This document shows, piece after piece, positions 2,835-61,250 of a stretch of DNA of 64,000 bases. The notes under the pieces are model-generated. The model was not told the origin of the DNA and did not search any database. It was given only the letters and a program-made list of their open reading frames with translations. Made by a program: the position numbers and the translations under genes. Source of the DNA: Candidatus Aminicenantes bacterium (GTDB lineage Bacteria; Acidobacteriota; Aminicenantia; Aminicenantales; Aminicenantaceae); assembly GCA_030669305.1 (NCBI GenBank), contig DAOVDU010000001.1, forward strand, positions 14,812 through 78,811, read 5' to 3'. Numbering within the stretch: position 1 is the stretch's first letter; each line of letters begins with the position of its first letter.

Positions 2835-4312
2835 AGCTCAAGGATTTACTAGCCGGAGTTCCTTTTTTGCATCTCAGCGGAAAAGAAGACAATGAAATTC
2901 AGGGAATCTCTTATTCCTCGAAGACGATCAAGCTTGATTACTTATTCGCAGCATTAAAAGGGGAAAAAGCGGATGGACTTGACTTTATCGATGAAGCTCT
3001 AGAAAAAGGGGCAGGAGCTGTTCTCTCAGAAAAGCCTGCTCCACTAAATTTCAAAAAAAGCTGGATACAGGTCTCAGATGCGCGAGAGGCACTGGCCTTA
3101 TGCTCAGCAAATTTTTATTCTCACCCGTCCAAAGAATTGAAAGTTATTGGCATCACAGGAACAAAAGGAAAAACAACAATTACCTATTTGCTCGAAGAAA
3201 TATTAAAAGAATCTCATCTCTCCCCTGGAGTTATCGGCACAATATCCTACCGGGGCCCAAACATGAAAATATCTGCTAAAAGGACTACTCCTGAAGCGCC
3301 TGACTTACAAAGAATGATGCGAGAAATGCTTGACCATGGAGCGACTCACTGCCTGATGGAAGTTTCTTCTCATTCTTTAGAACTTAAGAGAGTCGTAGGA
3401 ATAGGGTTTGATGTAGTGGTCTTTACAAATTTAAGCGGTGAACATTTGGACTATCATCATACAATGGAACGTTATTTTGATGCCAAAAAAAAACTTTTCT
3501 ATCTTAAACCAGACAAGAGAATCGCTAGAATCGCTGTGATCAACTCGGATGACTTCTGGGGGAAAAAATTGATATCCGAGCTTCGTATGGGTATCATCAC
3601 CTATGGTCTCAAGCCACCTGCGATGATCCATGTCGAAAAATTCACGCTCTCAGAAAAAGGAATAGAACTGCAGGCTAAATTTCCGACAGGCGGGATGACA
3701 GTCTCCTCTCCACTTCTAGGCAAGCCGAACCTGTACAACATCCTGGCTTCAATAGCCACAACTTTGACATTGAATCTGCCTGTTCGAGCGATAATTAAAG
3801 GGATATTCACTCTTCAGGGCGTACCCGGAAGGTTTGAAAAAATAGAAAATTCCATAGGACTCAATATCTTCGTGGATTACGCCCACACTGATGACGCTTT
3901 GAAAAATCTGCTTGAAACTGTTCGAGAGCTAAATCCCAGGAAAATTCTCTTGGTTTTTGGCGCAGGAGGAGATCGGGATAAAACAAAAAGAGCGAGGATG
4001 GGAGAGATCGCCGGGACTCTTGCCGACTGGAGCATTCTCACTTCCGATAATCCGCGTTCCGAAGATCCCTTAGCTATCCTCTCAGATATTGAAAAAGGTA
4101 TCAGAAAAACAGGAATTAAAAAATACGAAGTTCTTTCCGACAGGAAAAAGGCTATTAAACATGCGCTCTCTCTCGCACAAAAAGGGGATTACGTCCTTGT
4201 TGCCGGAAAAGGCCACGAAGATTATCAAATAATCAAAGACAAAGTTATACACTTTGACGATGCAGAAGTCATCAGAGAAATCCTCAAAGAGATGGAGGCT
4301 ATCAAAAATTGA
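2831..4312 (+). CDS. murE: UDP-MurNAc-L-Ala-D-Glu:meso-diaminopimelate ligase MurE
   Basis: Mur ligase P-loop GITGTKGKTT. The DNPR motif (SDNPRSEDP) is diagnostic of meso-DAP specificity. ATGA overlap with ftsI. Confidence 0.9.
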   Translation: MKLKDLLAGVPFLHLSGKEDNEIQGISYSSKTIKLDYLFAALKGEKADGLDFIDEALEKGAGAVLSEKPAPLNFKKSWIQVSDAREALALCSANFYSHPSKELKVIGITGTKGKTTITYLLEEILKESHLSPGVIGTISYRGPNMKISAKRTTPEAPDLQRMMREMLDHGATHCLMEVSSHSLELKRVVGIGFDVVVFTNLSGEHLDYHHTMERYFDAKKKLFYLKPDKRIARIAVINSDDFWGKKLISELRMGIITYGLKPPAMIHVEKFTLSEKGIELQAKFPTGGMTVSSPLLGKPNLYNILASIATTLTLNLPVRAIIKGIFTLQGVPGRFEKIENSIGLNIFVDYAHTDDALKNLLETVRELNPRKILLVFGAGGDRDKTKRARMGEIAGTLADWSILTSDNPRSEDPLAILSDIEKGIRKTGIKKYEVLSDRKKAIKHALSLAQKGDYVLVAGKGHEDYQIIKDKVIHFDDAEVIREILKEMEAIKN

Positions 4313-15056: not shown

Positions 15057-16338
15057 TCTTGCTATAATCAATTGCAGTCATCTTGTTACTTGCCAAGGTC
15101 CGATACCTAAAAGAAAAGATTCCCTCCTGGATATCGGACTTGTAGATAAAGGCTGCATTGCTTCCTATAGAGGAAAAATTGTATTCATAGGCGAAGAAAA
15201 AAAGTTCAATAAAGAAATTCTTTTAGAAAAAAAAGGCGTTCATATCGATGGAAGCGGCCTAGTTGGACTTCCAGGTTTTGTAGACTCCCACACACACCTT
15301 CCTTTCGCCGGAAACAGAGAGGAAGAATTTATCCTCCGTCTTAAAGGCTACACATATCAACAGCTTGCAGAAAGAGGTTTAGGTATTCAAACAACCGTGA
15401 ATGCAACCCGTCAGGCATCAATGGATGAACTCACCTCTTTATGTTTAGCCCGCCTTGACAATATGCTTCTTCACGGGACAACAACAGCAGAGGCAAAAAG
15501 TGGCTATGGATTAAATCTTAAGGACGAAATAAAGCAATTGAGAACTCTGCAGGAACTCAATAAGATTCATCCAATAGATATCGTCCCCACTTTCATGGGC
15601 GCCCACGAAGTCCCAAAAGAATACAAAGCCCGAAAAGACGACTACATAAACCTCCTCATTCATAAAATCCTCCCGGAAGTAAAAGAAAACAACCTGGCTG
15701 AATTTTTCGATGTCTATTGTGAAGAAGGAGTTTATTCTGTCGAGGAATCGAGGAAATTAATCAGAGCAGCAAGAGAAGCAGGATTAAAAATCAAAATCCA
15801 CGCCGATGAATTCGCTCCTCTTGGAGGAGCACAGCTTGCTGCAGAGGAAGGAGCTATTTCTGCAGACCATTTAATCGCAATCACTGATGAAGGCATAAAG
15901 AAACTTGCAGAAAGTTCGACGACAGCGACACTTCTCCCCGGAGTATCCTTTTTCCTCATGCAAGAGAAGAAAGCACCTGCCCGCAAACTCATCGAACAAG
16001 GAGCAATTGTTGCTCTTGCTACGGATTTTAACCCAGGAAGCTCAATGACAGAGTCTATGTTTTTCATCATGCAGCTGGCTGTCTTTTCTTTGAAAATGGG
16101 CATCGAAGAGGCCATCAACGCCACAACCTCTAACGCCGCCTATGCTTTGGGAAAGCATAAAGAAGTGGGGAGTCTGGAAGTTGGAAAGAAAATGGACCTC
16201 ATCCTCTGTGATGCACCCAATTATCCCCATCTTATCTATCACTTCGGCATTAATCCCATAAAATATGTCATAAAAGGCGGACATGTCGTCGTCAAGAATG
16301 GGAAAGTCTTGCAAAAATCCAAATACCAAACGGATTAG
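15043..16338 (+). CDS. hutI: imidazolonepropionase (amidohydrolase superfamily)
   Basis: [23 protein letters not shown] and DFNPGSS align closely with HutI over most of the length from memory. 14-nt overlap with the ftsZ 3' end. Confidence 0.8.
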
Positions 16339-16600
16339 TTTAAGGTTAAAAGTTTAAGGTTTAAGGTATTTATATTTTTAATTTAGTATTATTCCTTAAA
16401 CATTCAACCTTAAACCAATTCCTGCTCTTGCCTTAAACATTAAACATTCAACCTTAAACCAATTCCTGCTCTTGCCTTAAACATTAAACATTCAACCTTA
16501 AACCAGTTTCTGCTCTTGCCTTAAACATTAAACATTTAACCTTAAACCAGTATATGTTTCGAATTTCGGATTTGGTGCTTGGTATTTGGTGCTTTTTACT
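16339..16600. mobile_element. MITE-like intergenic element, copy 1 (TTAAAC-rich family), with an internal 44-bp tandem repeat of about 3.3 copies
   Basis: Left end CCAAATACCAAAC and right end GGATTTGGTGCTTGGTATTTGGTGCTTTTT are inverted (AGCACCAAAT core). The inverted core GGAATAATACTAAA..AAAAATATAAATACCTTAAAC is shared with copies at 29970, 31619 and 42405. Unit CCTTAAACATTAAACATTCAACCTTAAACCAATTCCTGCTCTTG repeats from about 16396 to 16550. Confidence 0.55.
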
Positions 16601-26306: not shown

Positions 26307-26420
26307 GTTAATCTGTTAGTCGGTTAGTCTGTTAGTCGGTTATTTTAATTAAAATATTCAACTGACTAACTGATCAACAGTCTAACTGTCTAACTGACAA
26401 ACTGTCTAACTGACTAACAG
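26307..26420. repeat. octamer-array hairpin element (CNGTTARW arrays in inverted orientation around palindromic AT core TATTTTAATTAAAATA)
   Basis: CTGTTAGTCGGTTAGTCTGTTAGTCGGTTA, then the AT core, then ACTGACTAACTGATCAACAGTCTAACTGTCTAACTGAC... read directly. Confidence 0.8.
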
Positions 26421-26426
26421 AAATTT

Positions 26427-29969: not shown

Positions 29970-30075
29970 GCCAAAACCTATATTGGTTTAAGGTTGAATG
30001 TTTAATGTTAAAGGAATAATAATAAATGAAAAATATAAATACCTTAAACCTTAAACTTTAAACCTTAAACTAATC
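29970..30075. mobile_element. MITE-like element, copy 2 (truncated, lacks the right TIR)
   Basis: GGTTTAAGGTTGAATGTTTAATGTTAAAGGAATAATAATAAATGAAAAATATAAATACCTTAAACCTTAAACTTTAAACCTTAAACTAATC matches the cores at 31685 and 42430. Confidence 0.5.
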
Positions 30076-30158
30076 CGTTGAGTCCGTTAAATAAAAAGGC
30101 GAGACGAACAAAAGGCATGTCATTGCGAGCTTTCGAAGAAAGCGTGGCAATCCCATAA

Positions 30159-30276
30159 GTTCAGTTGGTCAGTTAGTCGGTTAATCAGTTGGTCAGTTAA
30201 ATATTTTAATTAAAATAACAGACTAACCGATTAACAGACTATCCGATTAACAGACTAACAGACTAACCGAAATCAG
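30159..30276. repeat. octamer-array hairpin element with TATTTTAATTAAAATA core, followed by a T-rich tract
   Basis: Inverted arrays flank the AT core. TTTTGAGTTTTGAGTTTTTT follows, so it probably acts as a terminator between the convergent truA and rimI genes. Confidence 0.75.
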
Positions 30277-31465: not shown

Positions 31466-31618
31466 AGCAGTCCTATCTCCAGTTTAGCGTTTTACTGTAG
31501 TAGAAAAATCCATCGGTTCTTTGTATTTAATATATCATTTAAACCATCGCTCATGGGCTCAATAAATTCTTATTTAATATTATTCAAAGAGTAAAATATT
31601 TTGTCAATGCATATAAAA

Positions 31619-31822
31619 TTCCAAATTACAATTTCCAAATACCAAACAAGCACCAAAATCCCAATGCCCGAAACCTTTTTGGTTTAAGGTTAAATGTTTA
31701 AGGCAAGAGTGGAAATTGGATTAAGGTTGAATGTTTAATGTTTAAGGATTAATACTAAAAGAAAAATATAAATACCTTAAACTTTAAACTTTAAACTAAT
31801 CATTTGGAATTTGGTGCTTTTT
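31619..31822. mobile_element. MITE-like element, copy 3 (most complete, about 205 bp, imperfect ~20-bp TIRs)
   Basis: Left ...AAGCACCAAAATCCCAATG. Right CATTTGGAATTTGGTGCTTTTT, which is the reverse complement ...AGCACCAAATTCCAAATG. Internal core as in the other copies. Confidence 0.55.
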
Positions 31823-34806: not shown

Positions 34807-34960
34807 TATTTTTAAATATTAAAAAAAAAATTGGCTTTTTCATTCAAGCCAAATCAGTATTTTGTTCTCCTCATCTTTTCCATTCTTCACCTCATTTGAG
34901 TATCTTCAAAGTGTATTACGGATATACTTTTAAAAAGGTTCATGCTTAGTAAAAGTTTTT

Positions 34961-35201
34961 CTGTTAGTCAGTTAATCCGTTAGTCTGTTTATCTGTTAAT
35001 AAGTTTAATTCATATAATTGATAAAAAAGAAATTATATTAAAATGACGATATCAATAATTACCTATTATCCCCACAAATGGAAGAAGAACCAAATAAGAT
35101 AACTGATTAACTGACTAACCGACTAACAGTCTAACTGATTAACTGACTAACAGTCTAACCGTCTAACCGATTAACCGACTAACAGTCTAACCGATTAACT
35201 G
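34961..35201. repeat. octamer-array element: left array 34961-35000, right inverted array 35101-35201, separated by about 100 bp of AT-rich sequence
   Basis: Read directly. The right array holds about 12 units of TAACTGAC/TAACCGAC type. Confidence 0.8.
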
Positions 35202-35205
35202 AAGC

Positions 35206-39368: not shown

Positions 39369-39500
39369 ATCTGTTTATCTGTTAATCGGTTAGTCTGTTT
39401 TGTCTGTTCTGAAATAAATAACTGACTAAATTGTCTAAGCTAATTCCTTGTCTTGCCTGTCTTGCCAGCGAAGCGTTGTCTTGCCTGTCTTGCCCTTTCT
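39369..39500. repeat. degenerate octamer hairpin (39369-39440) plus a third repeat family (TTGTCTTGCCTGTCTTGCC x2 around AGCGAAGCG, 39447-39500)
   Basis: Read directly. Related sequence recurs at 47941-48035. Confidence 0.6.
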
Positions 39501-42404: not shown

Positions 42405-42532
42405 CGAAACAAATCCAAATGACCGAAACTTATATTAGTTTAATGTTAAAGGTTTAATGTTTAAAGAATAATACTAAATGAAAAATATAAATACTTTAAA
42501 CTTTAAACCTTAAACTGATCCATTTGGAATTT
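42405..42532. mobile_element. MITE-like element, copy 4
   Basis: ACAAATCCAAATGACCGAAAC...GTTTAATGTTAAAGGTTTAATGTTTAAAGAATAATACTAAATGAAAAATATAAATACTTTAAACTTTAAACCTTAAACTGATCCATTTGGAATTTTC. Confidence 0.5.
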
Positions 42533-44466: not shown

Positions 44467-46905
44467 ATGGCAGTGGAAAAACTAAGAGTCCGCTCTCTTG
44501 TGGGAATATTCTTAATCTCATCAGCAACCCTTTGTCTGGAAATATCTCTTACAAGATATTTCTCGATTTCTCAACAGTACCACTTTGCATTCTTAGTGGT
44601 CAGTATAGCTTTCCTGGGATTTGGAGCCAGTGGATCTTTTTTATCTTTCTTTAAAAAACTTCACCAAATGGACCGAGACAAATTCCTGTCTTTTACTTCC
44701 TTTCTCTTTTCTATTACTATTCTTCTGAGTTTTCTTCTCTGTAATTCTATTCCTTTCGATTTCATCAAGCTTTCCTGGGATAAAAATCAAGTTTTTTTTA
44801 TCATCCTCTATTATTTCCTCCTCAGCATGCCTTTCTTCTTTGCTGGTATGACAATTTCTTTTGCTATAACCAGGGCTTCAAGCCTTGTTAACAAGATTTA
44901 TTTCTCTGATCTTCTGGGAGCAGGAACTGGCACTCTGCTTGCCATTTTTATATTCTTGCCCAAGGGAGACAAGGGCGTTATCCTCATTATTTCCTTTTTG
45001 GCTCTTGTTTCTTCTTTCCTCTTCTATACCAGGAGGTCATTCATTTTTAAATCTCTCCTGGCTTGTTTCATGGCAGCAGAAATAATTCTCTTTTTTGCCT
45101 CGCCCTCCTGGTTAAGCTTCAGGATATCTCCCTTCAAAGCCCTTCCTTTAGCCTTAAAATATCCACAGGCAAAACATCATCTCACAAAATGGAATGCTGT
45201 ATCACGAATAGATATTCTCGAGTCTCCTGCAGTAAGATATGCACCGGGTTTAAGCCTGCTGTATAACAAAAATCTCCCTCCCCAGCTCGGCTTATCCATT
45301 GATGGAAGTGAACTTACTGCTGTTACCGCCTTTAAAGATTCAAAGGACCCATCCCTGGAATTTTTCTCCTTCCTTCCCTCTTCCCTTTCCTATGCTTTCA
45401 AGGAAGAACCGCATGTGCTTATCATCGAACCCAAAGGGGGATTGGACGTTCTTGCGGCCCTTGCTTTCAAAGCCTCTCAAATCAAGGTCATTGAGAGCAA
45501 CCCCGGCATCGTTAAAATTCTTAGCGAGGAACTCTCTTCCTTTTCTGGCAAACTCTACAATAAAGAAAACATAGATATTGTATCTTCATACAGCCGGGCG
45601 GCTTTAAAAAGAGAAAAAGAATACTTTGATCTCATTGTATTTTCCCTGGCAGATATCTTTGGCTCATCCGGAACAGGCATGTATGGATTCGGGGAAAATT
45701 ATCTTTATACACTCGAGTCTTTTGTCAACATTTTAAACAGATTAACTCCTGAAGGAGTGGTCAGCATGAGTTTATACTTGCTCCCCCCTCCCCGTCAGGA
45801 AATAAGAATCCTGGCAACATGGATCGAAGCCTTAGAAAGGAGCGAAAAAGATCCCGCTTCCCATCTCATGGCTATCAGAAGCTGGGGGACAATAAGTTAT
45901 TTTGTTAAAAATAGCCCTTTCTCCAAAAAGGAAATCCAAAAGCTCAAAGATTTTGCTGACAAATGCCTCTTTGATCTTGTTTTCTATCCTGGCATAAAAG
46001 CCGATGAAGTAAACATCCACAATGAATTTGACAAGCCTCTATATTATAATTATGCAATTCAGCTTCTTTCGTCTTCAAAGAGAAAAGAGTTCTACAAAGA
46101 TTATCTATTCCAGGTAAAGCCTGTATCAGACAACCGGCCGTTTTTCTTCAACTTCTTCAAGCTTAATAAAATTAAAGATACTTACACAGCTCTCAGTCAA
46201 AAGTGGCTGCCATTTCTTCAAGGAGAATTTCTAGTGCCGGTTCTTTTCATCCAAGCCATCATCATAGCTTTTATACTGATACTGCTGCCGCTTTTTGTTT
46301 TTCGAAGGAGCAAAAGAAGCAGGAAAGATGTTTCTCTGAAAGTCTTTTTCTATTTCAGCCTGATCGGAATGGCATTTATGTTTGTGGAAATAACTTTTAT
46401 ACAAAAATTCATACTTTTTTTGGGCCATCCTTTATACTCCACCTCTGTCATCATTTTTTCTCTTCTCTTTTCCTCAGGATGGGGAAGTCTTTTCTCTAAG
46501 AAAATTCTAGGCCATAATTTAAAAAAGAATCTTAGGGTAAGCCTTGTTTTTTGCGTGGGGCTTATTGCTGCTTATCTTCTTATTTTCCCAGTCTTTTATG
46601 AAAAGTTTATAGGCCTCAATCTCTCTTTAAAAATTTTCCTGACTTTTTTGTTTATTTTTCCCCTCGGGTTCATGATGGGATTTCCTTTTCCTTCTGGAAT
46701 TCGAATGCTGGAGAAAAAAGAAAAGAGGCTTATTCCTTGGGCATGGGCAACCAATGCCTTTTCATCTGTAATTAACTCGATACTCGCGCTTATGATTGCA
46801 TTTTGGGGAGGATACAATATTGTCCTGATCCTGGCCGCCGGAGGCTATTTGCTTACGATTCCTTTTCTCGGCTTCTCCTGTCATAGGAACAAAACGGACA
46901 CCTGA
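44467..46905 (+). CDS. polytopic membrane protein with central spermidine-synthase-like (class I MTase-fold) domain
   Basis: About 7 N-terminal TMs. Central [34 protein letters not shown] resembles aminopropyltransferase folds. About 8 C-terminal TMs. Confidence 0.55.
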
Positions 46906-47586
46906 GATGTGTTTAACCTTTGGTTTCCCTTTAGTTTTGGTTATAAGAGTTAGAGTTTGAAAATAAAGCGTGCTCCCGAGAGGAATGATAAGCCTTCCTC
47001 CCTCCTTTAACTGATCTAAAAGAGGTGAAGGAACATGATTTGCTGCACAGGTGACAATAATGGCATCAAAAGGGGCAAATTCCTCCCAACCAAAATAGCC
47101 ATCTTCCCATTTCACACACACCTGATTGTAACTCAATCTTTCCAGCGTCTCTGATGCTTTCTTTGCCAAATTCTCTCTTATCTCAATCGAATAAACTTTA
47201 TCTGTCAGATGAGCAAGCACTGCAGCCTGGTAACCTGAACCAGTCCCGATCTCTAAAACTTTCTCTCCCTTTTTCAACTTAAGATATTGGGTCATAAGAG
47301 CTACTATATAGGGCTGGGAAATTGTCTGCCCCTCTTCAATTGGCAGAGGATAATCCTCGTAAGCTTGGCTGCGGTGTCGTTTGCTGACAAAAAGATGACG
47401 GGGAACTTTCCCCATCGTATCAAGCACGTTTCTGTCAGTTATATCTCGAGCAGCAAGCTGCCTCTGGACCATTTCTTTCCTCAGCCGTGTGTAAACTTCA
47501 TCCTCTCCTCCAAAGCACAAAAGATAAACAAACGCTAAAACTCCTGAAAGAGCAAAAATGATTACAAAAAATTTCCCTTTTTTCAT
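46762..47586 (-). CDS. pcm: protein-L-isoaspartate O-methyltransferase with N-terminal TM anchor
   Basis: [21 protein letters not shown] motif and PCMT-like flanks. The 3' end overlaps the convergent 812-aa gene by about 143 nt, so the exact stop is uncertain. Confidence 0.75.
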
Positions 47587-47631
47587 TTTCCTTATTCTCG
47601 CCCAAAAGAGAACTTAAATCAATCCCCTTCA

Positions 47632-47930
47632 TCGGTTAATCGGTTAATCTGTTAGTCTGTTAGTCAGTTGATCTGTTAAATATTCTAATTAGGCTCATCT
47701 CCAAAAGATTTGGTAGGATCATAAGGGGTCAAGGGGTCAGGGGTTCGAGTGACGTGCTGAAAAGTTACAAAGAGCAGAACGTTTGGCAAAAGTCCTATGA
47801 TTTTTGAAAGGTTCGAACCCTTTGCATCAACTAATCAGGAGAAAAATCTTTAATTAAAATAACTGACTAACTGATTAACTGACTAACAGACTAACAGACT
47901 AACAGATTAACTGATTAACTGATTAACTGA
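47632..47930. repeat. octamer-array hairpin element split by a ~180-bp insert (left array 47632-47680, right inverted array 47861-47930)
   Basis: Left array ends ...AAATATTCTAATTA. The right array begins after ...TTAATTAAAATA. So the palindromic AT core is interrupted by 47681-47860. Confidence 0.6.
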
Positions 47931-48280
47931 ATTGATGAGATTGTCACGCTTCGCTCGCAACAGAGGATTGCCACTCTTTCTTCGAAAGCTTGCAATGACA
48001 CCCCTTTTGCCTATCTTGCCTGTCTTGCTGTCTACTCTTTAGGGGTGAATAGAATATTGTGAAACTTCCCCCCTAAAATCCTCCTCCCCGGTGATTGACA
48101 ACCAAATTGGGATAGATATATAAAAGAAAAGAAGATAATAGAAAGATGGTAAAATATTTTTCTTTCTTGAGGAGGTCAATTACCATAATATTGGAGCAAA
48201 AAAAAATTTTTTAGTTTGACAAAACATTTTTTATTTGATATTTAATTACCAACCCAGGTGAATAAACTAATAACATATAC

Positions 48281-48766
48281 ATGAAGAATAAAGCTGTTTA
48301 TCCTGGCTCATTTGATCCTATAACTAACGGACATGTTGATATAATTCAAAGAGGGTTGGAAATTTTCGATAAAATATTGATTTCGGTTTTAAAAAATCCC
48401 AAAAAGGAACTACTTTTTTCGACTAAAGAAAGAGTAGATATGATTCAGACCATTTTTTCTAGTCAAGAGAAGGTCGAAGTAAAGGCTTTCGATGGTCTCC
48501 TTGTTGATTTCGCAAAAAAAAACAATGCCAAAATAATCATAAGAGGCCTAAGAGCCATCTCCGATTTTGAGTATGAATTTCAGATGACTTTAATGAACAG
48601 AAAACTTGATCCTGAAATTGAAACATTTTTTTTGATGCCCAATGTCAATTATTCTTTCCTCAGCTCAAAGTTGGTTAAGGAAGTCTCCATGTTGGGAGGT
48701 TGTCTCCAAGGCTTGGTTCCCATGGAAGTAGAAAAAAAACTGAAGAAAAAATTTAAAATAAATTGA
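48281..48766 (+). CDS. coaD: phosphopantetheine adenylyltransferase
   Basis: KAVYPGSFDPITNGHVDII nucleotidyltransferase motif. 161 aa. Confidence 0.9.
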   Translation: MKNKAVYPGSFDPITNGHVDIIQRGLEIFDKILISVLKNPKKELLFSTKERVDMIQTIFSSQEKVEVKAFDGLLVDFAKKNNAKIIIRGLRAISDFEYEFQMTLMNRKLDPEIETFFLMPNVNYSFLSSKLVKEVSMLGGCLQGLVPMEVEKKLKKKFKIN

Positions 48767-60171: not shown

Positions 60172-60372
60172 TTCAAATTCCAAATAACAAATAAGCACCA
60201 AAATTCCAATTACAGGCGGTTGGTAAATACTGCTAAACTGCCATACTGCAGAAGAATAAGAAAATGGTAAATGGTTAATAGTTTTCTTGCCTTAAACCTT
60301 AAACTTTAAACCTTAAACTAGTTTGTTTGGAATTTGTTTGGAATTTGGATTCTGGAATTTGGGATTTTGAAT
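60172..60372. mobile_element. MITE-like element, copy 5 (variant internal sequence, reiterated right TIR)
   Basis: Left CAAATAACAAATAAGCACCAAAATTCCAATTAC. Internal CCTTAAACCTTAAACTTTAAACCTTAAACTA. Right TTTGGAATTTGTTTGGAATTTGGATTCTGGAATTTGGGATTTTG. Confidence 0.45.
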
Positions 60373-61250
60373 TATTCTAAATTCTGAACTTGTTGGCGGA
60401 TACTCTCTACCTCTCCCTTAATCATTAAGCTCCCTTTGATTATCTCAATATCATGTGCTTTAGAATTTAAGGTATTTGCCTCCCGATAAAGTTCCTGAGC
60501 AACAAAATCCAGTTTCTTCCCTACAGGTTCTTCAATTTTTGGAGAAAGAAGTTCCTGCGAATGATTCAAATGGCTCTTCAGTCTAGCAATTTCTTCTGTC
60601 AAATCGTATCGTTGAGCAAGATAGGCCGTTTCTTCGGCCAGCTTTTCCTGTGAAATCACAGCTTCCTGATCTAACTTTTTTAATCGTTCTGTCAATTTTT
60701 CTCGGATAAGAAAAGGCTGCTTTTTCGCAAGCCCTTCGATCAGGTTCACAGCTTTCCTTATATTCTGGAGATTTCTCCTAATCTCTCTTTTTATTTCCCT
60801 CCCCTCTCTAAGCCTTTCCTTTATAAGCACATCCAGGGCCTTTTCAAAACTTCTCTCTAAAAATTCAACTTCTTCTCCAGTCAAATCTTTTCTCGTCAGA
60901 TCCACAATATGCGGGATGCTAAACAAATTCTCCACTGAAAAACTCGACCTCTGATGCATCCTGGAAGACACCTTTTCCAGAGAAGAAAGGATCTCTCTCA
61001 ACAAATCTTCATTGATCCGAAGCTTCCAGCTCCCTTGATCCAGAAAATTCAAGCTAATGAAGACCTCAATTCTTCCTCTATGCAGCCTTTTCTGACAGGT
61101 AGCTCTAAGTTTGTTCTCTACTGCTCCGATTTGGTTCCCGCGGCAGCTCCAATCTAAGTAGCGGTGGTTTAGAGTTCGGATACTAATCTTTACAGAAATA
61201 GTTTTGGAATCAAACTTCTTTTCTGCATAGCCAGTCATGCTTCGGATCAA
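60372..61250 (-). CDS. yicC: YicC-family stress-induced protein
   Basis: MIRSMTGYA N-terminus and C-terminal DUF1732-like region. Adjacent to gmk as in many bacteria. Confidence 0.85.
   Translation of the reverse strand: MIRSMTGYAEKKFDSKTISVKISIRTLNHRYLDWSCRGNQIGAVENKLRATCQKRLHRGRIEVFISLNFLDQGSWKLRINEDLLREILSSLEKVSSRMHQRSSFSVENLFSIPHIVDLTRKDLTGEEVEFLERSFEKALDVLIKERLREGREIKREIRRNLQNIRKAVNLIEGLAKKQPFLIREKLTERLKKLDQEAVISQEKLAEETAYLAQRYDLTEEIARLKSHLNHSQELLSPKIEEPVGKKLDFVAQELYREANTLNSKAHDIEIIKGSLMIKGEVESIRQQVQNLE

Follow-up and report, generated by a model that had tools for sequence, protein, structure and literature searches.

A probable dead copy of a small mobile cassette of the PF05635 family interrupts an octamer hairpin between pcm and coaD in an Aminicenantes bacterium

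MITEs and mobile insertion cassettes (MICs), of which MIC231 of Bacillus cereus is an example, are non-autonomous elements that are bounded by terminal inverted repeats (TIRs) and mobilised in trans. PF05635 ORFs have been reported scattered among the rRNA insertions of CPR bacteria and also between cas genes. Intervening sequences (IVSs) of the 23S rRNA that carry an S23p/PF05635 ORF are described in Leptospira and Coxiella burnetii, and their origin is unclear according to Warrier et al. 2016 (PMC4990558), where two earlier proposals are cited, namely that IVSs are remnants of transposition (Burgin 1990) and that they are mobile and are helped to move by their ORF (Ralph and McClelland 1993). 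PF05635 is related to Avd, a protein of diversity-generating retroelements (DGRs) (PMC10053308).

The window analysed here is the whole stretch of 64,000 nucleotides from an Aminicenantes bacterium, with a GC content of about 39% and an FtsZ that is 85-86% identical to proteins named "Candidatus Aminicenantes". It carries the divergent genes pcm and coaD, and the spacer between both harbors an octamer hairpin that is interrupted by a foreign segment of 157 bp. Analyses of this insert and of related copies indicated, with a probability of roughly 0.85, that it is the dead remnant of a small, TIR-bounded mobile cassette that has undergone internal deletion. That the insert is a decayed PF05635 cassette is close to certain, and its arrival by a transposition that duplicated 8 bp is quite probable. 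The features of the locus are as follows.

46762-47586, minus strand: pcm (protein-L-isoaspartate methyltransferase), PF01135
47632-47679, plus strand: left hairpin arm, six TCNGTTAR octamers (motif and repeat scans)
47684-47691, no strand: putative target-site duplication, left copy TCTAATTA, within the AT-rich hairpin centre (flank comparison, hairpin restoration)
47692-47848, plus strand: probable internally deleted PF05635 cassette, a MITE-like remnant (alignment with 11 other complete copies)
47692-47702, plus strand: 5' terminal inverted repeat GGCTCATCTCC, family consensus GGMTCWTCTCC (copy alignment)
47723-47750, plus strand: G-rich 8-mers of the leader arm, AAGGGGTC AAGGGGTC AGGGGTTCGAG, the first "T-arm-like" string (TRF period 8; units in all copies)
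47754-47807, plus strand: PF05635 ORF remnant, 17 codons VLKSYKEQNVWQKSYDF, then a stop (translation; matches P0003 SSDVVKSYKEQNVWQKSYDLCLKIYKITKRFP and the L006 ORF)
47793-47816, plus strand: TCCTATGATTTTTGAAAGGTTCGA, end of the ORF remnant and start of a second leader unit, as in the L010 tandem copy (23/24 identical to L010)
47806-47825, no strand: "T-arm" palindrome GAAAGGTTCGAACCCTTTGC, putative deletion junction at which leader arm ..GGTTCGA/GG.. meets trailer arm ..CCTCGA/ACCCTTTGC at the shared TCGA (copy alignment)
47817-47848, plus strand: trailer ACCCTTTGCATCAACTAATCAGGAGAAAAATC, including the 3' terminal inverted repeat GGAGAAAAATC (47838-47848; consensus GGAGAAGAACC) (copy alignment)
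47849-47856, no strand: putative target-site duplication, right copy TTTAATTA (flank comparison, hairpin restoration)
47859-47930, minus strand: right hairpin arm, nine octamers, reverse complement of the left arm (motif and repeat scans)
48281-48766, plus strand: coaD, PF01467

The interrupted hairpin consists of inverted (TCNGTTAR)n arrays. A search with TCNGTTARTCNGTTAR at no more than one mismatch returned 78 matches in the window against 0.09 expected, and these matches group into eight clusters. Two complete hairpins occur elsewhere in the window, at 30161-30270 and 26307-26421, and in both the arms are joined by the AT palindrome alone (ATATTTTAATTAAAATA-type centre; the centre of the former reads ...GTTAAATATTTTAATTAAAATAACAG...); the remaining arrays have one arm only or different spacers. 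The sequence-only reading had described an octamer hairpin interrupted by an insert of about 180 bp. Both arms were recovered with the insert between them, and the strings GGGGTCAAGGGGTCAGGGGTTCGAGTG and GAAAGGTTCGAACCCTTTGC that it had quoted are present in the sequence; the insert is real, but alignment to homologous copies gave it a length of 157 bp (47692-47848). Self-BLAST of the window returned no second copy of the inter-arm sequence, in agreement with its supposed uniqueness, while the statement that arms elsewhere are joined only by a short centre applied to the two complete hairpins and not to the other arrays.

The array pair 34953-35202 is an octamer hairpin whose arms lie about 100 bp apart, with AT-rich unique sequence at 35001-35098. 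This spacer ends in GAAGAAGAACC (35081-35091), which resembles the 3' end of the cassette at chance level (5 matches against 1.8 expected) and makes the spacer at most a candidate for a second, more strongly decayed insertion; a terminal-repeat motif search of the window gave chance-level matches only, and that at 35081 was not significant. Several octamer arrays start 0-5 nt from the stop codon of a neighbouring ORF (26421/26427, 35202/35206, 39367/39368 and 55492/55497). On either strand, each of the three frames of the octamers contains a stop codon (TAA, TAG or TGA), so that an ORF running into an array terminates almost immediately.

Analysis of the hairpin centre revealed that it reads ...AAATATTCTAATTA to the left of the insert and TTTAATTAAAATAAC... 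to the right, and that these halves overlap by 8 bp, TCTAATTA and TTTAATTA, which match at 7 of 8 positions with one mismatch. The overlap is not due to the palindromy of the centre, because both halves together exceed the intact centre by 8 bp. When the insert and one 8-mer were removed, a 134-bp hairpin was obtained that aligned without gaps through the centre to the hairpin at 30161-30270, with one centre mismatch; the "empty site" in this restoration is a paralogous hairpin and not the orthologous locus. The earlier suggestion of an insertion into the AT palindrome of the hairpin is borne out by the 8-bp duplication and by the restored hairpin. An orthologous empty site at pcm-coaD was not recovered using the exact Pcm and CoaD proteins; the short-read contigs obtained end inside the octamer arrays or, in the case of L001, have a rearranged intergenic region. 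L001 (1-394, compared with 47887-48280 of the window) encodes an identical CoaD protein and differs in the upstream region, which holds degenerate TTACTGAG-type repeats and does not hold the palindromic repeat of window 47939-48005. The repeat-filled pcm-coaD spacer appears from this comparison to be highly plastic among close relatives.

Other repeats were also identified. The repeat family GAGATTGTCACGCTTCGCTCGCAACAGAGGATTGCCAC...GCTTGCAATGACA adjoins hairpins of the window at 47939-48005 and 30109-30153 (91% identical over 45 nt) and resembles the widespread palindromic "...GTCATTGCGAGC...GCAATC" intergenic repeats. Short 9-mer arrays (TTGCCTGTC / GCAAGACAG) lie beside octamer hairpins at window positions 48007-48033 and 39449-39494, in L006 (3360-3415) and in L001 (1-160). 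Heptamer arrays (GTTTAAG / TTAAACA / ACCTTAA), some of them inverted pairs, were found at 16338-16549, 29986-30070, 31616-31797, 42438-42516 and 60290-60373; the array at 16396-16549 is a 44-bp unit repeated 3.5 times.

A 20-mer of the insert, GGTCAGGGGTTCGAGTGACG, was absent from the GTDB genomes and had five matches in the metagenome collection, four of which were chance matches inside coding regions and only one, L006, was real. Alignment of L006 with the window copy revealed the same 5' and 3' ends (103 of 115 nucleotides identical in the 5' part and 32 of 34 in the 3' part) and about 160 more bases between them. The reading frame of L006, VLKSYKEQNVWQRFYQLCLEIYKITKRFP..., matched at its N-terminus PF05635 "23S rRNA-intervening sequence protein" (E 1.1e-4) and TIGR02436 "four helix bundle protein". 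When this fragment was used as a protein query, most of the sequences recovered were broken ORFs of the PF05635 family, among them P0003, which reads SSDVVKSYKEQNVWQKSYDLCL... and is nearly identical to the 17-codon remnant of the window; the contigs of the protein fragments, L010 to L013, all carry the cassette. The leader 23-mer pattern AAAGANTTGGTAGGATCATAAGG, searched over the GTDB genomes, identified 12 loci in five Desulfobacterota MAGs. The metagenomes and these five MAGs contain dispersed copies at more than 17 loci, with up to five copies per MAG and sizes of 157-491 bp, and a scan of viral contigs gave no match. A small mobile element had been one of the origins considered from the sequence alone, and the homologous dispersed copies with shared ends and target duplications agree with it.

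The anatomy of the family was determined from the alignment of 12 complete copies. The conserved ends of the cassette are GGMTCWTCTCCAAAAGAGTTGGTAGGATCATAAGG... and ...CCCTTTGCATCAACTAATCGGGAGAAGAACC, in longer form GGATCATCTCCAAAAGAGTTGG ... CGGGAGAAGAACC, and the 11-bp TIRs of the family, GGATCATCTCC / GGAGAAGAACC, are complementary at 9 of 11 positions. The parts of the cassette, in order, are:

Part 1: 5' end, GG(A/C)TC(A/T)TCTCC
Part 2: conserved leader, AAAAGAGTTGGTAGGATCATAAGG
Part 3: two to five G-rich 8-mers (GATTCAAG / GGGTCAAG / GGTTCGAG)
Part 4: ORF
Part 5: C-rich 8-mers, complementary to the leader units
Part 6: CCCTTTGCATCAACTAATCGG
Part 7: 3' end, GAGAAGAACC

The leader and the trailer, each of about 60 nt, form imperfect inverted repeats of 8-mers (RGGRTTCA / TGAAYCCY). 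L026 (2431-2921, 491 bp) and L029 (485 bp) are intact copies, and in L026 the leader can form about 45 base pairs with the trailer (duplex energy -74 kcal/mol). Intact ORFs code for 123-126 aa and match PF05635 over their full length (P0025: E 2.6e-40, 137 bits against a cutoff of 33.8), and the protein of an intact copy matched PDB 2GSC (XCC0516) with E 3.9e-26. The dN/dS ratio among three intact copies was 0.11-0.15 and the protein is therefore under purifying selection where it is intact. This PF05635 gene is the only ORF of the cassette, which carries no transposase gene. More than 6,500 database proteins matched the reconstructed consensus at E < 1e-20, and many of them are 83-99% identical and located on very short contigs, as a repeat would give.

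Two variants of the cassette were observed. In L027/L028 (2462-2895) the ORF is intact and the outer ends are absent; the unit is bounded by a perfect inner inverted repeat, ATAAGGATTCAAGG...CCTTGAATCCTTAT, with no visible target duplication, and from this variant the cassette may combine two layers, an IVS-like unit inside and a shell around it. In L014 (reverse complement 1557-1760) and L020 (reverse complement 3045-3225), both from one Desulfobacterales MAG, the leader is broken at the same point of the 8-mer block by the same GC-rich palindromic repeat of about 110 bp (GAAGCCTCCCCGCGGCAAGCCACGGGGAGGCTTC...GCGCTCGCTTTCGCGG) and the trailer is absent; a second small element seems to have inserted into the cassette at this point.

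The window copy is the most deleted of the copies found. Direct comparison of both its ends showed that the right TIR is degenerate, being complementary to the left end at 7 of 11 positions. The G-rich 8-mer block of the leader is recognisable as GGGGTCAAGGGGTCAGGGGTTCGAG (47726-47749, TRF period 8), and the sequence switches to the trailer at GGTTCGA/ACCC, where the trailer consensus reads ...CCTCGAACCCTTTGC. The 4-mer TCGA is common to the leader unit (GGTTCGAGG) and the trailer unit (CCTCGAACC), and the T-arm look-alike GGTTCGAACC is best read as a deletion junction that fused two inverted arms at TCGA. L010 (2881-3270) is a tandem partial duplication in which two consecutive leader-plus-N-terminus units are followed by a 3' truncation, and its junction motif is that of the window copy. 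The window copy is probably an inert relic with no function of its own; both ends are kept, and in principle it could still be mobilised.

Comparison of the left and right 8-nt flanks of 12 loci revealed that 70 of 96 positions agree, against 35% for flanks paired across loci, and none of 100,000 permutations was as good; the other flank registers, of 4-7 and 9-12 nt, gave no comparable signal. Perfect 8-bp duplications were found at L016 (ACAAGGAG), L022 (CAAAAACA) and L026 (AAAAGTTT), and the duplication of L029 is TAAAAAAG once the border is shifted by one base; in strict register the duplications are poor at two of the 12 loci, L017 and L021. The targets are A/T-rich intergenic 8-mers, many of which lie a short distance upstream of a gene. 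The view that the element targets the AT palindrome of the hairpin was not upheld, as only the window copy, among 14 insertion sites with both flanks, lies in the centre of an octamer hairpin and the others are just A/T-rich.

Most of the complete copies are internally deleted. One identical internal-deletion junction was found in L017 and L022, which are different loci of one MAG, and another identical internal deletion is common to L016, L019 and L023 from two MAGs. Identical deletions at different loci indicate that gutted, ORF-less copies moved after the deletion, mobilised in trans on their ends. A transposase with matching ends was not found, and there was no second occurrence of the leader end among the loci examined.

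The cassette resembles MITEs and MICs in its TIRs, its fixed 8-bp duplication, the absence of a transposase, its size of 157-491 bp and the presence of several copies per genome; like them it has deletion derivatives that have themselves spread, and like a MIC it carries a passenger gene in its intact form. It differs from them in that no parent insertion sequence or transposase was found, in that the passenger is always the same PF05635 gene under purifying selection, and in that its inverted repeats, about 60 nt of 8-mers, go far beyond a typical transposase-binding end. Judged by structure, the element would be classed as a mobile insertion cassette with MITE-like derivatives.

With the ORF-bearing 23S rRNA IVSs of Leptospira and C. 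burnetii (PMC4990558) the cassette has in common the protein family, the long complementary termini that enclose the ORF and form a stem, the short direct repeats beside the stem (heptamers in Coxiella, octamers in the cassette), the frequent decay of the ORF and the horizontal transfer inferred for both. In contrast to the IVSs, the copies of the cassette are intergenic, between protein-coding genes, and not in helices 9, 25 or 45, and no rRNA was detected in the window by Rfam; the element lacks the defining feature of an IVS, which is its location inside rRNA. The cassette also has outer terminal repeats and 8-bp target duplications, neither of which was found described for IVSs (PMC4990558, literature search). 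To bAvd (PF22296) of DGRs the cassette protein shows a weak but real similarity (E 2.8e-8, 34.6 bits, below the family cutoff of 40), and the cassette differs from the Avd systems in that no reverse transcriptase is called beside the three intact copies examined. In the literature search, whose coverage is incomplete, no paper was found that gives the end sequences of the element or that reports TIRs together with target duplications for PF05635 cassettes, nor were target duplications found described for rRNA intervening sequences. The cassette is apparently a so far undescribed, transposable form of the IVS-protein cassette.

These data are best explained by the following course of events. 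An intact cassette of about 490 bp, made up of TIRs, leader, PF05635 gene and trailer and without a transposase of its own, would have inserted into the TTTAATTA centre of the octamer hairpin between pcm and coaD, and a DDE-type transposase acting in trans would have made staggered cuts and so given rise to the 8-bp duplication. Microhomology deletions would then have reduced the gene to 17 codons and, at TCGA, joined the G-rich to the C-rich arm, so creating the T-arm look-alike.

The cassette may instead have spread by a route that does not involve a DDE transposase, either through an RNA intermediate (IVS-like reverse insertion and reverse transcription) or through recombination aided by an Avd-like protein, with the 8-bp repeats as a by-product; we consider this unlikely. 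PF05635 shares homology with the DGR accessory protein Avd; furthermore, the element encodes no transposase, and relatives are known within rRNA that act at the RNA level. However, a fixed 8-bp duplication beside defined TIRs is what DNA transposition classically leaves behind, deletion derivatives that lack the ORF have spread, and no reverse transcriptase gene was present next to any of the three intact copies examined.

Less probable still is that the remnant was exapted as a small RNA or as an element that regulates pcm or coaD in cis, such as a stem processed by RNase III as in the 23S rRNA IVSs. Intact relatives do have a long IVS-like terminal stem, and the cassette is co-oriented with the downstream gene at 11 of the 15 loci that could be judged, the window copy pointing toward coaD; this orientation bias is weak, suggestive and not significant. 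The leader-trailer pairing is mostly deleted in the window copy, the minimum-free-energy folds of the insert on either strand were no better than those of shuffled sequences (z-scores -0.9 and -1.7), and a promoter and terminator scan identified no such site within the insert. The proposal of an ncRNA gene, raised by the sequence-only reading, found no backing in these fold scores.

The same reading had suggested a tRNA-derived fragment or an att-site remnant, in which GAAAGGTTCGAACCCTTTGC would be the 3' part of a former tRNA, and this is very improbable. The likeness lies in the 5-bp stem and 7-nt loop TTCGAAC (T-psi-C-R-A-N-Y) at 47808-47824, to which the string GGGGTTCGAG at 47740-47749 can be added. 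Against it, ARAGORN found neither tRNA nor tmRNA over the window, Rfam gave no match over the window at gathering thresholds, and a permissive Rfam search of 47580-48290 returned nothing tRNA-like up to E 10 and nothing meaningful within the insert, so that neither a cloverleaf nor a covariance-model match accompanies the motif. Both strings are 8-mer units of the cassette arms that recur in every copy in other contexts, and in the longer copies the two halves of the palindrome flank the ORF at a distance of 150-400 bp from each other. The resemblance to a T-arm is probably incidental, GGGGTTCGAG and CTCGAACCC being the two arms of the cassette inverted repeat fused by the deletion. Outside the insert, upstream of coaD, a weak Rfam match to the DUF805b RNA was seen at 48029-48074 on the minus strand (18.4 bits against a gathering threshold of 35.6, E 0.018), probably by chance. 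With the insert read as transposon debris, neither an ncRNA nor an att site needs to be sought at this locus.

That there was no insertion at all, and that two independent octamer arrays flank an ordinary unique spacer, as the pair at 34953-35202 with about 100 bp of unrelated sequence between its arms might suggest, is hardly tenable, given that both halves of the conserved hairpin centre are present with an overlap of exactly 8 bp and that the "spacer" is homologous from end to end with a dispersed element of other genomes.

The mobile cassette to which the insert is assigned was found in distant hosts. L006 has a GC content of 38.5% and is probably from a relative, because it has other repeat types in common with the window, including a degenerate octamer hairpin. 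The copies in MAGs are located on Syntrophales or Desulfobacterales contigs with 50-55% GC. The 5' part of the window copy is 77-90% identical to five of six copies compared and 73% identical to that of L029, and the 3' end is 85-94% identical. The host of the window is an Aminicenantes bacterium while the MAG copies belong to Desulfobacterota, and the cassette would therefore cross phyla; the similarity suggests that the cassette was transferred between phyla living together in anoxic sediments. There is a small residual chance that single MAG contigs were mis-binned and that the cross-phylum pattern arose in this way, although the GC content of the flanks speaks against it. Being a repeat, the cassette also fragments short-read assemblies of sediment metagenomes.

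The family links the long-unexplained ORF-bearing 23S rRNA IVSs to an element with the hallmarks of a transposon. As a tentative proposal, to which we give somewhat less than an even chance, PF05635 cassettes would be bona fide DNA transposons, with TIRs, 8-bp duplications, cross-phylum spread and MITE-like derivatives, and the IVSs of Leptospira and Coxiella would be explained as cassettes that landed in an rRNA helix, a special case in which the long stem lets RNase III excise them. If true, this would explain by what mechanism IVSs arose, a point still described as unclear (PMC4990558), and would raise the question whether the conserved Avd-like protein takes part in mobility. Since a cassette with transposon hallmarks occurs in Aminicenantes and Desulfobacterota, the old hypothesis that IVSs are transposon remnants becomes testable directly on sequence data.
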